Shown: positions 10,946 to 57,031 of the stretch, one piece after another
Layout: the number at the start of each line of letters is the position of its first letter
How positions within the stretch are numbered: position 1 is the first letter of the stretch
Source: an uncultured bacterium
GTDB lineage: Bacteria > Bacillota > Limnochordia > DTU080 > JAAYLA01
Reading direction: 5' to 3'
Assembly (NCBI GenBank): GCA_937983075.1
Contig: CALKAQ010000008.1
Coordinates: 554-64,553 of the forward strand
DNA length: 64,000 nt
The notes under the pieces: model-generated
Told to the model about the DNA's origin: nothing
The model's database searches: none
Seen by the model: the letters and a program-made list of their open reading frames with translations, nothing else
Program-made: the position numbers and the translations under genes

Positions 10946-11146
10946 ATGTCAACCGGTCTTTGGGTTGCACTGCTTGGTATCATTGTGTCGTACATCGGCT
11001 GGTCTGCGGTGCAGGGCGAGCTCGGTGCTGGAATCTTGGGTTTCGGTTTGGCGCACATTGTACTCGGGCTGTTGGATGCCGCCTTCAATCGTGCATCTAT
11101 CCATAACACCAATCGCAATGAAGTCAGCAACGAACATCACGAGTAA
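10946..11146 (+). CDS. Small two-TM membrane protein, function unknown
   Basis: 66 aa. AAGGGGAGG RBS sits 7 nt upstream of the ATG. Sequence is hydrophobic. Confidence 0.4.
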   Translation: MSTGLWVALLGIIVSYIGWSAVQGELGAGILGFGLAHIVLGLLDAAFNRASIHNTNRNEVSNEHHE

Positions 11147-11214: not shown

Positions 11215-12138
11215 TCAGCCGTTGTCCGCCTGGCTGTGAGCTGCGCCGACAAGCTGCTCGTACGGAATGCCTGTCTGCTCCACATATGCCTGCAGGCCCC
11301 GTACGACTTCCGGTGCAGCGTACGGCTGTGTGAAATTCGCCGTACCCACTGCAACCGCTTTCGCACCCGCCAGCACGAATTCAGCGGCGTCTTGCCATTG
11401 CATGATGCCGCCCATGCCTATGATAGGTACCGACACCGCCTCATACACTTGCCATACCATGCGCAAGGCGATGGGCTTAATCGCCGGGCCCGACAAACCG
11501 CCAAACGTATTGGCGAGCACCGGGCGCCGCCTGTGAATGTCGATCGCCATACCCAAAAACGTGTTGACAAGTGAAATGGCGTCAGCACCGGCTTCTTCCA
11601 CCGCCCGTGCCATTTCGGCGATATCGGTGACATTGGGCGACAGCTTTGGAATGACCGGACGGCTGCTCACTGCCTTCACGGCGGCCACAACTTCCGCCGC
11701 CGAGCGCGGATCGCTGCCGAACTGAATGCCGCCTTCTTTAATGTTCGGGCACGATATATTGATCTCGATCGCGTCGATGCCTTCGGCTTCTTCCAACCGC
11801 TGCGTCACACCGACATATTCTTCGATGCTGCGCCCGATGATGTTGACGAAGATGCGCGTATCATACTGACGCAAGAATGGCAAATCGTGCTTGAGGAAAT
11901 GATCGACGCCCGGGTTTTGCAAACCGATGGCGTTTAACATGCCTGCGTGGGTTTCAGCGATGCGCGGCACCGGGTTGCCTCGCCACGGTTCGAGCGATAC
12001 GCCCTTGACCATAATGCCGCCGATCAGCGAAAGATCGTAGAACTCACTGTATTCCCGCCCGTACCCAAACGTGCCCGAGGCGACGAGGACCGGATTGTTC
12101 AGCCGAATTCCGGCAAGCTCGATGGCGAGATCGCTCAT
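11215..12138 (-). CDS. pyrD: Dihydroorotate dehydrogenase (class 1B), catalytic subunit
   Basis: 308 aa from [28 protein letters not shown] active-site Cys motif. The start overlaps the pyrK stop. Confidence 0.9.
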
Positions 12139-12947
12139 CCGAAATATACCTCCTCCGCCGAAAAGACCGGCCCTTCCTTGCACACCCGCTGGTATTCGGT
12201 CGAACCGTCGCCGTTGCGAATGGGCACTACGCAGGACAGACATGCACCGACACCACAGCCCATCCATTCTTCCAATGCGAGTTGTGCCGGAACACCATAG
12301 CGTTTGGCCATCGAAGCAACCGCGGCAAGCATGGGATACGGTCCGCAGGCGTAAATGGCGTCGATTTCACCCGCTCGCAGCAAGGGCTCCAGTGCGTCCG
12401 TCACCAACCCTTGGCGCCCTAAACTGCCATCCACCGTAGTCACTTCCACCTGAATGCCGAGCTCCGCCATGTCGTTGTGGCAAATGGCCAGCCGTGCCTC
12501 GTTGAAACCGAGAATCGCCCGTACATCGCCATGATGGATGAGCACTTTTTGCGCCCAAAGAAACAGCGGAGGCACACCGACGCCGCCGCCGACCAATGCC
12601 GGGCGGCTGCCGGGCAGCAGCGAAAAACCTTTGCCCAAAGGTCCGATGATGTCGAGCTGATCGCCCTTCTGCAAACGAGAAAGGATGCGTGTTCCCCGGC
12701 CGACCGTCCGGTACAGCAAGCTGTACGATCCATCGGGAAACCGGCGATACAAGCTAAAAGGACGCCGCAGCAACGGATCGAAACGGTCCGCACCGGAGAC
12801 CGACACATTCATAAACTGGCCGGGCGCCGTCCGTTCAAAAACCGGATGCGGCTCCAAAATCAGTTCAAAATGTTCATCGGCGACAGCGTGCTGCGCTGCA
12901 ACGCGTACAACGAATTGTTCCGGCGGCAAGGCGCTCCCCTCCTTCAC
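12135..12947 (-). CDS. pyrK: Dihydroorotate dehydrogenase electron-transfer subunit (FAD/2Fe-2S)
   Basis: 270 aa. RRPFSL FAD motif and C-terminal CGVGACLSC cluster. The GTG start overlaps the carA TGA (GTGA). Confidence 0.9.
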
Positions 12948-14032
12948 GCGTCGACACCCGTTGCCGCGAGCTGCTGGAGAAAACGATCGAATAAGTAAGT
13001 GGAATCTTCAGGTCCCGGCGCCGCTTCCGGATGATATTGGACCGAAAACACGGGCAAGTGGCGATGGCGCATGCCTTCGACGGTTCCGTCATTGAGATTC
13101 TTGTGCGTGACGATGACATCCGCCAGACTCGCCTCGTCAAATTCAACGGCAAAGCCGTGATTTTGCGAAGTGATGTACGCTCTGCCCGTCTCGATTTCTT
13201 GCACCGGATGATTGGCACCGCGATGGCCGTGCTTGAGCTTGTACGACCGAGCGCCGCACGCAAGCGACAACAGCTGGTGGCCGAGACCAATTCCCATGAT
13301 CGGCGCTTCTTTCATTAACACCCGGGCGAGGTCGATGCCGTAAGTGCAACGCTGCGGGTCTCCGGGGCCGCTGGAAAACAGGATGCCGTCGGGCCGTTCC
13401 GCCAGAATGTCTTCCGGCTTCGACGTAGCCGGAACCACGCGCACCCGGCAGCCGCGCTGCGCCAACGCACGCAAAATGCCCTCTTTCACCCCGAAGTCGA
13501 TGACCACCACATCCGGTCCGTTTCCGTCAGCGTACACGTATGCCTTTTCCGTGGTCACCTGGCTCACGAGATCTTCATCGGAAGGCAACGGGGTTGAGCG
13601 GGCGCGTTCGGCGAGCTCCTCGACGGAAACCTCCACGGAACTGATGATGCCCCGCATCGTACCGTGCTCCCGTAAATGCCGGCTGAGTGCTCGCGTGTCG
13701 ACACCGGCAATGCCGCACACGTCGTTTTCGACCAAAAATGCGTTCAGCAAATCGCGGGAGCGCCAATTACTCGGCGAAAAGCACAATTCACGGACAACGA
13801 TTCCGCGGGCGTGGATCCCCCTCGATTGGAAGTCATCGGCGTTGATGCCATAATTGCCGATCAATGGGTATGTCATCGTAATGATTGCGCCACTGCTGGA
13901 CGGATCGGTCAAAATTTCCTGATATCCGGTCATGCTGGTGTTGAATACAACTTCACCGTGGACCTCGCCGCGTTTGCCGATTGCCGTTCCATAGTAAGCC
14001 GATCCATCTTCCAACACTAAAACCGCTTTCAT
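12944..14032 (-). CDS. carA: Carbamoyl-phosphate synthase small (glutaminase) subunit homologue; catalytic Cys replaced by Gly
   Basis: 362 aa with full-length CarA similarity. His and Glu of the triad are present (HGHRGANHP, YHPEA). The nucleophile motif reads GIGLGHQ instead of GICLGHQ (codon GGT at 13286–13288). Confidence 0.85.
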   Translation of the reverse strand: MKAVLVLEDGSAYYGTAIGKRGEVHGEVVFNTSMTGYQEILTDPSSSGAIITMTYPLIGNYGINADDFQSRGIHARGIVVRELCFSPSNWRSRDLLNAFLVENDVCGIAGVDTRALSRHLREHGTMRGIISSVEVSVEELAERARSTPLPSDEDLVSQVTTEKAYVYADGNGPDVVVIDFGVKEGILRALAQRGCRVRVVPATSKPEDILAERPDGILFSSGPGDPQRCTYGIDLARVLMKEAPIMGIGLGHQLLSLACGARSYKLKHGHRGANHPVQEIETGRAYITSQNHGFAVEFDEASLADVIVTHKNLNDGTVEGMRHRHLPVFSVQYHPEAAPGPEDSTYLFDRFLQQLAATGVDA

Positions 14033-15002: not shown

Positions 15003-16286
15003 TCATCGCTCCTGCTCATAACGAATCGTTCCGTCGACCACCGTAGCCACAATGGCCGCCCGGACAGGCCGACCGATGTACGGATGATTGGCCGCCAAAG
15101 ACGCCTGCTGATCTTGCTCCAGCGTCCAAGGCCGGCCCGGTTGGAGAATTGTCAGATTCGCCGGCTCCCCGACGGCGACGCGCGGCTCCGGCAAGCCGAG
15201 CACACGAGCCGGTCCGGCGGTCAGCCGCTCGACCAGCGTTGCCGCCGGCATCCGCCCCGATTCGACGAGCTCCGTCCAAAGAGCCGGCACCGCCGTTTCA
15301 AGACCCGCCGCGCCAAACGGCGCCTGATCGAATTCAACCAGCTTTTCTTCCGTCGTAAACGGCGTATGGTCCGTTACCACCGCATCAATGACGCCCGTCG
15401 CCAAGCCCTCGATGAGTGCTTCCCGATCAGCTTCGGTGCCAAGCGGCGGCCACACTTTGTAAGACGTGTCATAGTCGCCCAACACTGCGTCGGTTTCCAC
15501 AAGATGCAGCCAACTCACCTCGGCGGTCACCGGAATGTCTGCTTCCTTGGCCCAACGCACCCATTCGACCCCTTGGCGCGTGCTGACATGCTGCAGGTGG
15601 GCTCGTCCACCCGTCAGACGAGCGAGAAGGATCTCCCGGACAAGTGCGCTCGCTTCGGCTTCGGCAGGCATGCAGCGCAAACCGTAGATCGTCGCGTGAA
15701 CGCTTTCCCAAGCGCTCGCCCCGCCGGCCAGGCTGAGATCCATGGCATCCAAAAACAATGGGGTTCCCCATCGCTGCAAATAAATGAGTGCACGTCGCAC
15801 CAAGCCGCTGTCCGCGACCGGTTTCCCGTCGCCTAACGCGATCGCTCCCGCTTCAACGAGCTCGCCCCATTCCGTGGGCTCTTGACCTTGTCGCTGGCGC
15901 GTGAGCGCACCGACCGGAAGAACGCAGCAGGCCAGTTCGCTGCCGCGGCTTCGCAGTGCCCGCACGGCATCGGCGGTGTCACGAGCCGGCTCAGTGTCGG
16001 GCATGACGACGACCTTGGTGAAACCTCCGCGGACCGCTGCTTGCGTCAATGTATCGAGCCGTTCCCGCCTTTCATGCCCCGGTTCCCCTACGTGCGCATG
16101 CAAATCAATGAAGCCAGGCAGCACCCACGCCCCCGCAGCATCGACAACGGCATCGGCAGCGACATCGTTCAGCTCGGGTTCGATGCGGACAATGCTTCCG
16201 GCGTCGCACAAAATGTCGACGCGGTGCCCTTCCGCATGCTCACCTGCGGGATCGATGATACGTCCGCCTTTAATGAGTAAGCGCAT
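15003..16286 (-). CDS. pyrC: Dihydroorotase (type I)
   Basis: 427 aa. DLHAHVGEPG (HxH), TDHTP and EEK motifs are present. Several canonical active-site positions deviate (see findings). Confidence 0.8.
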   Translation of the reverse strand: MRLLIKGGRIIDPAGEHAEGHRVDILCDAGSIVRIEPELNDVAADAVVDAAGAWVLPGFIDLHAHVGEPGHERRERLDTLTQAAVRGGFTKVVVMPDTEPARDTADAVRALRSRGSELACCVLPVGALTRQRQGQEPTEWGELVEAGAIALGDGKPVADSGLVRRALIYLQRWGTPLFLDAMDLSLAGGASAWESVHATIYGLRCMPAEAEASALVREILLARLTGGRAHLQHVSTRQGVEWVRWAKEADIPVTAEVSWLHLVETDAVLGDYDTSYKVWPPLGTEADREALIEGLATGVIDAVVTDHTPFTTEEKLVEFDQAPFGAAGLETAVPALWTELVESGRMPAATLVERLTAGPARVLGLPEPRVAVGEPANLTILQPGRPWTLEQDQQASLAANHPYIGRPVRAAIVATVVDGTIRYEQER

Positions 16287-17211
16287 CGCCTTGACCTCCC
16301 GACAGCAAATACAACATGGCCATGCGAACAGCGACCCCGTTCGACACTTGTTCCCGCACGGCGCAGCGTGGGTCTTCCATCACTTCGGGCGTGATCTCGA
16401 CGCCCAAGTTCGCCGGGCCGGGGTGCAAAATGAGCACGTCAGGCCGGGCAACGCGCTGCAGGCGTTCCCTCGTGATGCCGAACAGTCGCTGATACTCACG
16501 CAATGAAGGAAACAGTCCGGGTTTCTGGCGTTCCAGCTGAATGCGAAGCACGTTGACAACGTCGGCACCGTCCAACGCGGCATCGAGATCGGTGTACACT
16601 TCGACGCCCAATTGATCCAAACCGGGTGGGATTAAAGTGGCCGGACCCGCTACCCGCACCTTCGCGCCGAGCTTCTGCAGTCCCCATATGTTCGACCGGG
16701 CGACGCGGCTATGTAAAATGTCTCCGACAATCGTCACGGTGAGACCTTCGATGGTGCCTTTGCGTTCACGGATGGTAAACAAGTCGAGCAAAGCTTGGGA
16801 GGGATGCTCATGAATGCCGTCACCGGCGTTGATGACACGAGCTTGTGTGGTGCGAGCCAACAAATGCGGCGCCCCGGCGGATTGGTGGCGAATGACGATG
16901 ATGTCCGCGCCCAGCGCCTGCATAGTCAGTGCGGTGTCGGTGAAACTTTCGCCTTTCGTTACGCTGCTCGTTGAGACGGAAAAGTTCAATACATCGGCGC
17001 TCATCCATTTGCCTGCCATCTCGAAACTCGCCCGTGTGCGAGTCGACGGTTCGTAGAACAAGTTGACGACAACCCGCCCACGCATCGTCGGCAGCTTTTT
17101 GACCGAACGGCTGAAAATTTGCTTGCAAGGCTTCGCCGTATCCAAAATCGCTAAGATTTCTTCGCGCGACATATCCCGAAGCCCCAGAATGTCTTTCCGG
17201 GTGAATTCCAC
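16270..17211 (-). CDS. pyrB: Aspartate carbamoyltransferase catalytic subunit
   Basis: 313 aa. STRTR, HPSQ and HPGP motifs. GTG start with GGGGAGGG RBS. The 3' end overlaps the pyrC start. Confidence 0.9.
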   Translation of the reverse strand: MEFTRKDILGLRDMSREEILAILDTAKPCKQIFSRSVKKLPTMRGRVVVNLFYEPSTRTRASFEMAGKWMSADVLNFSVSTSSVTKGESFTDTALTMQALGADIIVIRHQSAGAPHLLARTTQARVINAGDGIHEHPSQALLDLFTIRERKGTIEGLTVTIVGDILHSRVARSNIWGLQKLGAKVRVAGPATLIPPGLDQLGVEVYTDLDAALDGADVVNVLRIQLERQKPGLFPSLREYQRLFGITRERLQRVARPDVLILHPGPANLGVEITPEVMEDPRCAVREQVSNGVAVRMAMLYLLSGGQGDALTH

Positions 17212-17282: not shown

Positions 17283-18925
<1,643 letters not shown>

Positions 18926-35242: not shown

Positions 35243-37188
<1,946 letters not shown>

Positions 37189-37268
37189 ACTCGGCGACTC
37201 ATGTAGAGGAGACATGAAGTCTCCTCTCGCTTTTTATACTCAGCCATTTGAAAGGAGTTCGTTGTCCT

Positions 37269-37614: not shown

Positions 37615-37800
37615 TATTGGCTTCACGTTGGTGCGGGCGAAAGGATTTGAACCTTCACGACCATAAGGTCACTAGCCCCTCAAGCTAGCGCGTCTGCCGA
37701 TTCCGCCACGCCCGCAGATGATTGAGCGAATATGCGATTCATCCTGTGACATCACTCATTATAACGCCTCCGAAGCGCTCTGTCAAGGCATGTTTCAAAA

Positions 37801-47044: not shown

Positions 47045-47131
47045 GCCGGAGTGGCGGAACTGGCAGACGCGACGGACTCAAAATCCGTTGGGGGCAACCC
47101 CATGTGGGTTCGATTCCCACCTCCGGCACCA
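47045..47131 (+). tRNA. tRNA-Leu (anticodon CAA)
   Basis: Cloverleaf folded by hand. GCCGGAG acceptor stem, CUCAAAA anticodon loop, long variable arm, 3' CCA encoded. A TTGCCA-17-TAATAT promoter lies at 46994–47022. Confidence 0.9.
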
Positions 47132-56765: not shown

Positions 56766-56841
56766 TGGTACCCCCACGGGGATTCGAACCCCGGTCTCAT
56801 GGCTGAGAACCATGCATCCTAGGCCTCTAGACGATGGGGGC
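56766..56841 (-). tRNA. tRNA-Glu (anticodon CUC)
   Basis: Hand-folded. GCCCCCA acceptor stem, GUCUAGAGGCCUAGGA D-arm typical of tRNA-Glu, CAUGG/CCAUG anticodon stem with loop UUCUCAG, T-arm GGGGUUCGAAUCCCC, CCA encoded. Confidence 0.85.
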
Positions 56842-56957: not shown

Positions 56958-57031
56958 TGGCTGGGGAATCTGGATTCGAACCAGAACTAATTGGTCCAGA
57001 GCCAATCGGGCTACCATTACCCCATTCCCCA
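56958..57031 (-). tRNA. tRNA-Gln (anticodon CUG)
   Basis: Hand-folded. U1:A72 acceptor stem (UGGGGAA/UUCCCCA), anticodon loop CUCUGGA, T-arm UCUGGUUCGAAUCCAGA, CCA encoded. A promoter TTGTAA-17-TAAACT lies at ~57058–57089 on the minus strand. Confidence 0.85.

Follow-up and report, generated by a model that had tools for sequence, protein, structure and literature searches.

In the 64,000-nt stretch of DNA analyzed here (the window; contig CALKAQ010000008.1 of an uncultured bacterium of the Limnochordia, Bacillota), the carA gene of a pyrimidine (pyr) operon encodes a small subunit of carbamoyl phosphate synthetase (CPSase) with Gly in place of the catalytic Cys of its glutaminase. Judging from sequence, we propose, with a probability of roughly 0.6, that this protein is a pseudo-glutaminase subunit that still partners the large subunit CarB, giving an ammonia-dependent CPSase. 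An earlier note on this DNA, made from the letters of the sequence, had offered three readings of the substitution. Among them, a dead glutaminase that is kept, having a CarB partner encoded elsewhere or belonging to an ammonia-dependent CPSase, fits the evidence best, since the Gly is maintained across deep divergence, the selection is purifying, relaxation is limited to the glutaminase site, and an intact CarB accompanies the Gly-type CarAs of other lineages. Strong selection maintains the CarA with Gly, the most likely reason being that it continues to bind CarB.

Substitution of the catalytic cysteine

By both domain content and score the window CarA belongs to its family: PF00988 and PF00117 are both recorded, and the score against TIGR01368 is 473.2 bits (cut-off 307.35), with residues 3-355 covered. 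Compared with canonical CarA/PyrAA (TIGR01368), it is alike in length and in its two domains, is about 48% identical to E. coli CarA and lies in a pyr operon that is probably regulated by PyrR; the His, the Glu and most glutamine-site residues are also alike, while it differs in the Cys to Gly change and in the residues at positions 48, 51 and 240 of E. coli CarA. In the alignment with the E. coli CarA chains of solved CPSase structures (E = 1.7e-102) Gly249 falls onto Cys269, and the catalytic triad Cys269-His353-Glu355 (E. coli numbering) is therefore incomplete, with Gly at the Cys position. The elbow reads M-G-I-G-L-G-H-Q. Both translation and this alignment agree with the motif GIGLGHQ and the codon GGT (minus strand) noticed earlier, and the His and Glu of the triad (YHPEA motif), reported to be intact, are indeed present as His334 and Glu336. 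Ser46 and Ala49, two of the deviating residues, adjoin the glutamine-site residue Ser45 (E. coli Ser47).

The window CarA is thus predicted to be unable to act as a 'glutamine-hydrolysing' protein, which is how databases label such proteins. Its top match in PDB is 1C30 chain B (GISLGHQ, C269S). The engineered E. coli CarA variants C269S and C269G (PDB 1C30, 1C3O) are altered at the same position, being laboratory mutants, whereas the window holds a natural, selected variant. Rubino et al. reportedly found in 1986 that E. coli C269G and C269S holoenzymes are devoid of glutamine-dependent activity and keep the NH3-dependent one.

The Gly of the window CarA is real and old. A single-base sequencing or assembly error, which the earlier note had also considered because GGT is one substitution from TGT, can be practically dismissed, as it is refuted by two observations. 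Firstly, six assemblies, each from a different run or sample, carry the 1089-nt carA without any difference from the window, and an identical protein is listed for 44 contigs in 65 collection blocks (NCBI, ENA and Logan assemblies). Secondly, the alignment with close relatives, suggested in the note as a check, shows GIGLGHQ in the relatives with 87% (P0002) and 65% (P0003) identity, encoded with GGT and GGC, respectively; Gly is also found in relatives with 57% and 53% identity, and in the more distant lineages P0027 and P0107 its codon is GGA, two substitutions from TGY.

Selection on the window carA is purifying. In the comparison with the relative of 87% identity, the nonsynonymous rate dN is 0.07, the synonymous rate dS is 0.85 and dN/dS is 0.08, being 0.05 for the half with the class I glutamine amidotransferase domain and 0.13 for the N-terminal half. 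Lineages as distant as 65% identity still have an uninterrupted reading frame.

Relaxed constraint in Gly-type CarAs and their CarB partners

The catalytic Cys had been called universal, which does not hold. It occupies this position in all 80 loci of a background set (sampled GTDB species loci with distant Cys-type CarAs, from the motif matches listed), and Gly is found in 5 of the 120 nearest clusters at 90% identity. The best 150 representatives of 50%-identity clusters comprise 127 proteins with Cys, 20 with Gly, and one each with Phe, Asp and Ser; most of these Gly-type representatives are also devoid of His353 and/or Glu355. Gly thus makes up 20 of 23 non-Cys cases, though Ser, Arg, Tyr and Phe are likewise one step from TGY. 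This preference suggests selection at the strained nucleophile elbow, and selection against a residue that traps glutamine may also contribute. A different deviation is seen in four of the 120 nearest clusters, where Cys-type CarAs (P0045, P0063, P0097, P0118) have Leu, Tyr or Gln instead of the GHQ His (E. coli His272).

Gly-type CarAs are encoded in three settings. The first is the pyrF-carA-pyrK order of the clade containing the window (loci L001-L011 and L094-L097). The second is a classical pyr operon with carA(Gly)-carB, observed in Desulfonispora thiosulfatigenes DSM 11270 (WP_084053652.1, annotated as 'glutamine-hydrolyzing' despite the Gly) and in loci L100 and L103. The third is an arg operon, organized as argC-argB...argD-carA(Gly)-carB-argF in L101 and as argJ-argD-carA(Gly)-carB...argF-argG-argH in L102. 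All five Gly-type CarAs examined outside the clade lie 1-59 nt upstream of carB, and these CarBs are full-length (1050-1075 aa, 50-63% identical to Thermoactinomyces CarB along the entire protein). In neighbor-joining distance trees, which are poorly resolved, Gly-type sequences are interspersed among Cys-type ones; the exact number of independent Cys-to-Gly events was not derived from these trees, and the stronger argument for several origins is that the genomic contexts differ (a pyr or an arg operon with carB, or a pyr operon lacking it). The pyrB gene of D. thiosulfatigenes consists of two open reading frames (ORFs; 153 and 111 aa; L098, 4821-5755) in the NCBI assembly and is intact (353 aa; L099, 4064-5125) in the Logan assembly, the split being probably an assembly frameshift.

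Constraint in Gly-type CarAs is relaxed only at the glutaminase site. Retention of the consensus was scored in 24 Gly-type CarAs at the 72 columns where conservation among 131 Cys-type CarAs reaches 90% or more. The least retained columns are Cys269 (0%), His353 (33%), Tyr48 (42%), Asn240 (46%), Ser47, Glu355 and Asp362 (50% each), and Asp244, Gly359 and Pro360 (54% each), which belong to the catalytic site, the glutamine site or the first part of the ammonia tunnel. Retention in the conserved columns of the N-terminal domain is 91%.

The window CarA deviates from the consensus at four of the 72 columns, namely 269 (Gly), 48 (Ser), 51 (Ala) and 240 (Ser). When the window clade is excluded, columns 48, 51 and 240 have ranks 3, 11 and 6 of 71 for relaxation (rank-sum permutation p = 0.002). 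There are no departures at the 59 other columns, outside a set of 12, and at least three departures within this set are seen in only 2.3% of Cys-type CarAs. All 28 highly conserved columns of the N-terminal domain are kept save two near the active site. The window CarA looks like an early stage of a trajectory that has been taken further by other lineages.

These data also bear on the possibility that the protein is still a glutaminase, with another residue or a water-based mechanism replacing the thiol. Such activity would agree with the retention of His334, Glu336, Gln253, Asn291 and His292, but it is very improbable: class I amidotransferases hydrolyze glutamine via a Cys thioester, for which E. 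coli CarA cannot do without either Cys269 or His353 (PMC6245113), the elbow offers no Cys or Ser that could compensate, and related Gly-type proteins lose the His (Arg in P0003) or both the His and the Glu (P0027), as expected of an idle site.

The CarBs encoded next to Gly-type CarAs (L098, L100, L101, L102, L103) match the consensus at 93-98% of 319 conserved columns, and all five have the Cys232/Ala251/Ala314 gate. This gate has been described for CarB (PMC8674909) and matters for both nitrogen sources (PMC4655335). Asp258 is changed in three and Tyr261 in four of the five proteins; among 22 canonical CarBs the conservation of each of these residues is 95% or higher. The helix carrying them presumably also bears Arg265, which contributes to the tunnel wall where the two subunits meet. 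The changes may reflect co-adaptation of the tunnel entrance, a lead from a small sample (n=5).

The pairing with carB is also relevant if the genome holds, in addition, a canonical Cys-type CarA (e.g. by carB in an arginine cluster). In that case the PyrR-controlled Gly-type CarA could be an alternative small subunit competing for CarB, thereby switching between glutamine and ammonia use or tuning the enzyme to pyrimidine demand. Two CPSases, for pyrimidines and for arginine, exist in many Bacillota (PMC6245113), and Gly-type CarAs are encoded in pyr-type as well as arg-type surroundings; moreover, the window carA is unlinked from carB and located behind a putative PyrR-type leader, and the His, the Glu and most glutamine-binding residues are kept. 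Still, the location of Gly-type CarA 1-59 nt from carB in five other lineages points to a principal partner rather than an accessory competitor, and we regard such competition as unlikely.

The pyr operon without carB and pyrE

Comparison with NCBIfam supports the previously described gene order pyrR-pyrB-pyrC-pyrF-carA-pyrK-pyrD, all on the minus strand (Table 1). Six of the seven genes score above the curated family cut-offs, and PyrK (211 bits) is a family match under the equivalog cut-off of 314. The absence of carB and pyrE from the operon, also described before, was confirmed over the whole 64 kb, as tblastn with eight queries (six CarB, two PyrE) gave no E-value below 0.005. Nor did this search reveal any remnant of carB or pyrE in the window. 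The organization differs from the Bacillus-type operon (pyrR-pyrP-pyrB-pyrC-pyrAA-pyrAB-pyrK-pyrD-pyrF-pyrE) in that no carB follows carA and the pyrF-pyrE end is missing.

Table 1. The pyr operon of the window, its upstream elements and selected carA codons (window positions, listed in the direction of transcription)
Feature	Position	Strand	Comment
promoter-like site, sigma-70-like TTGACC-17-TAGAAT	17990-18018	-	promoter scan; just upstream of the leader
PyrR-binding-site-like leader RNA	17827..17949	-	RF00515, 44.5 bits (gathering 54), E = 1.7e-4 (1.4-kb local search)
pyrR, regulator / uracil phosphoribosyltransferase	17283..17846	-	259.7 bits (cut-off 138)
pyrB, aspartate carbamoyltransferase, carbamoyl phosphate consumer	16270..17211	-	398 bits (cut-off 263)
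pyrC, dihydroorotase	15003..16286	-	NCBIfam
pyrF, orotidine monophosphate decarboxylase, long type TIGR02127	14073..14999	-	NCBIfam; between pyrC and carA
carA, CPSase small subunit	12944..14032	-	362 aa; CPSase_sm_chain domain (N-terminal), then class I glutamine amidotransferase domain; nucleophile replaced by Gly
carA Ser46 codon (E. coli Tyr48)	13895-13897 (within 13886..13897)	-	differs from Cys-type consensus
carA Ala49 codon (E. coli Gln51)	13886-13888 (within 13886..13897)	-	differs from Cys-type consensus
carA Ser221 codon (E. coli Asn240)	13370..13372	-	directly before oxyanion-hole Gly (E. coli Gly241); differs from Cys-type consensus
carA Gly249 codon GGT	13286..13288	-	aligns with catalytic Cys269 of E. 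coli CarA
carA His334-Pro335-Glu336 codons	13025..13033	-	YHPEA motif; E. coli His353 and Glu355; intact here; many others of the Gly type lack them
pyrK, dihydroorotate dehydrogenase electron-transfer subunit	12135..12929	-	likely start TTG 12929
pyrD, dihydroorotate dehydrogenase 1B catalytic subunit	11215..12138	-	NCBIfam; final operon gene, no pyrE after it

The same carB-less synteny is found in two sisters that are among the closest Cys-type homologs, P0010 (GCA_041686855.1) and P0007, where the order is ileS, aminotransferase, DUF5665, dksA-like, lspA, rluD, pyrR, pyrB, pyrC, pyrF, carA(Cys), pyrK, pyrD, pyrE, purE (loci L092 and L093). Hence, the carB-less operon is ancestral to the clade and older than the Cys-to-Gly change. 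Since the intact triad of the sisters is useful only with CarB, carB should be located elsewhere in their genomes and, by parsimony, here too. Moreover, unlinked carA and carB are ordinary. In the background set, carB is directly downstream of carA in 39 of the 80 loci, and in 31 of the 72 assessable ones no carB is present within 10 kb; the statement that carA is always followed by carB fails beyond Bacillus-type operons. A causal link between the Gly and the missing carB, which the earlier note implied, was considered and rejected, as the linkage to carB was lost before the Cys-to-Gly change in this clade, and Gly-type CarAs elsewhere adjoin carB.

Of the two absences, only that of pyrE at the end of the operon is specific to the window lineage, P0003 included. 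In the Cys-type sisters pyrE (TIGR01367 type) and purE stand after pyrD (L092, 12937-13530; L093, 12938-13522), and according to gene order the Gly lineage has either lost pyrE here or relocated it. As pyrF is intact, a pyrE gene is expected elsewhere in the genome. The place of the sisters' pyrE is taken in the window by an ORF of 66 aa on the opposite strand (10946-11146, plus), followed by HtpX-like and LemA genes.

An operon without carB and pyrE, together with a one-nucleotide change that would inactivate the enzyme, could be taken as a sign of decay, with a recently inactivated carA becoming a pseudogene. This second reading of the earlier note is most improbable and was rejected: dN/dS is 0.08 at a dS as high as 0.85, the frame is preserved down to 65% identity, the Gly codon itself has undergone a synonymous change, the sisters with Cys have the same carB-less order, and curated cut-offs are passed by six of the seven operon genes, the PyrK match being below its equivalog cut-off.

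The location of carA among pyrB, pyrC, pyrF, pyrK and pyrD, in the absence of carB, might also point to a new role independent of CarB, the dead glutaminase being a scaffold or sensor, e.g. in a PyrB/PyrC complex or as a glutamine-binding regulator. There is a precedent in the same pathway, as class A aspartate carbamoyltransferases have structurally required inactive dihydroorotase subunits (PMC6022934), also a dead homolog kept structurally, albeit from another protein family and with another partner. However, the position in the operon is uninformative, being shared by the Cys-type sisters, and other Gly-type CarAs are coupled to carB. In E. coli CPSase the N-terminal domain of CarA contacts CarB, and in the window protein this domain is fully conserved apart from two columns near the active site. 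We therefore consider a role without CarB improbable.

The start of pyrK is probably TTG 12929 and not GTG 12947, leaving a gap of 14 nt between carA and pyrK. The TTG is preceded by a Shine-Dalgarno sequence AAGGAGG that overlaps the carA stop, and both elements are kept in L094 and L007, which have no GTGA overlap. The interpretation of GTGA (12944-12947) as the pyrK start is thus probably wrong, while the accompanying remark that there is no room for carB between these genes stands, given the short gap. For pyrD, the longest ORF (350 aa from ATG 12267; 11215-12267, minus) is too long; the start at 12138, yielding 307 aa, is supported by gene calls in six assemblies and by the 4-nt overlap with the pyrK stop.

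The RF00515-like leader overlaps the annotated pyrR start. It was matched below the threshold and in the local search alone, and no PyrR element was found in the window at the Rfam gathering threshold. The Rfam matches at this threshold are four tRNA genes only: 37632-37715 (minus), 47045-47128 (plus), 56769-56841 (minus) and 56961-57031 (minus). Elsewhere in the window, large ORFs encode IleRS, PolA, pyruvate kinase, GltX and IDH; one more, of 555 aa (35548-37215, minus), has no Pfam match and is wholly overlapped by an ORF of 537 aa (35575-37188, plus).

Proposed ammonia-dependent carbamoyl phosphate synthesis

With pyrB, pyrC, pyrD and pyrF intact, the demand for carbamoyl phosphate persists. 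A structural partnership with CarB in a holoenzyme using free ammonia is the most economical reading. The Gly249 CarA would release no ammonia from glutamine, because the thiol necessary for the glutamyl-thioester is absent. It would still bind a CarB encoded elsewhere, as in the Cys-type sister lineages, and would stabilize or activate it, possibly forming a part of the ammonia entry path. Free ammonia, not glutamine, would then be the nitrogen source for the carbamoyl phosphate that the holoenzyme supplies to PyrB.

Several points weigh against this proposal. As carB is absent from the 64 kb, the partnership is deduced from the sister lineages and from other Gly-type CarAs. The remaining His and Glu and most glutamine-binding residues would fit kept ligand binding as well, and a second, Cys-type carA may be present in the genome. 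The E. coli CPSase, when using ammonia, needs very high, probably unphysiological concentrations of it (PMC6245113), so an ammonia-dependent enzyme would need adaptations in CarB or an ammonia-rich cell. Finally, ammonia use by enzymes with Gly-type CarA is throughout a prediction from sequence.

A likely parallel is vertebrate carbamoyl phosphate synthetase I (CPS I; PDB 5DOT/5DOU), in which a folded, inactive glutaminase-like domain is likewise kept and the catalytic Cys is replaced. Human CPS1 has Ser294 instead of this Cys, cannot use glutamine and takes ammonia from solution by an alternative path (PMC4655335). The window CarA aligns with the glutaminase-like domain of CPS I (E = 1.6e-64) and resembles it in that the Cys is substituted and the module is kept (Gly249; dN/dS 0.08). 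On the other hand, CPS I is a single polypeptide of 1500 residues that requires N-acetylglutamate and serves the urea cycle, whereas the window CarA is a separate 362-aa subunit with Gly as the substitute, a pyrimidine context and an independent origin; Gly-type CarAs elsewhere are also separate from carB. Among bacteria, CarB alone is an ammonium-dependent CPSase, and CarB2 of Bacteroides has been proposed to be such an enzyme (PMC8121099). The ammonia route proposed for Bacteroides thetaiotaomicron is similar, but CarB2 is an orphan without a small subunit, whereas the window lineage keeps one, with a glutaminase predicted to be dead.

Extended to other lineages, these data outline a recurrent class of bacterial ammonia-dependent CPSases with Gly-type CarA, for and against which we see the chances as evenly balanced. 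The glutaminase would have been killed independently in different Bacillota lineages, both pyrimidine- and arginine-type, and always by Gly; CarB would still require the subunit, as a structural component or for ammonia entry, the tunnel would have been remodelled in its upstream part, CarB Asp258 and Tyr261 among the residues affected, and the window organism, with 4/72 positions changed, would be at an early stage. In the literature covered, which omits most subscription journals, no publication was found on a natural bacterial CarA without the Cys or on Gly-type CarA, and a recurrent, selected Cys-to-Gly pseudo-glutaminase subunit with an intact CarB in Bacillota appears to be unrecognised so far.

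The question is directly testable, since one carrier, Desulfonispora thiosulfatigenes DSM 11270, is cultured; Desulfonispora ferments taurine, releasing ammonia. The 'glutamine-hydrolyzing' annotation probably leads to errors when nitrogen flow in anaerobic Bacillota is reconstructed, and the preference for Gly (20/23) is informative about the residues that a nucleophile elbow can accommodate once a class I amidotransferase has been retired. According to reviews and recent papers, every bacterial CPSase takes its nitrogen from glutamine (PMC6245113, PMC4655335, PMC8121099), and the orphan CarB2 in Bacteroides is the one exception that has been proposed. If our proposal is true, Gly-type CarA with an intact CarB would be a second, independent bacterial route to ammonia-dependent carbamoyl phosphate, and a convergent parallel to the transition from CPS II to CPS I in animals.

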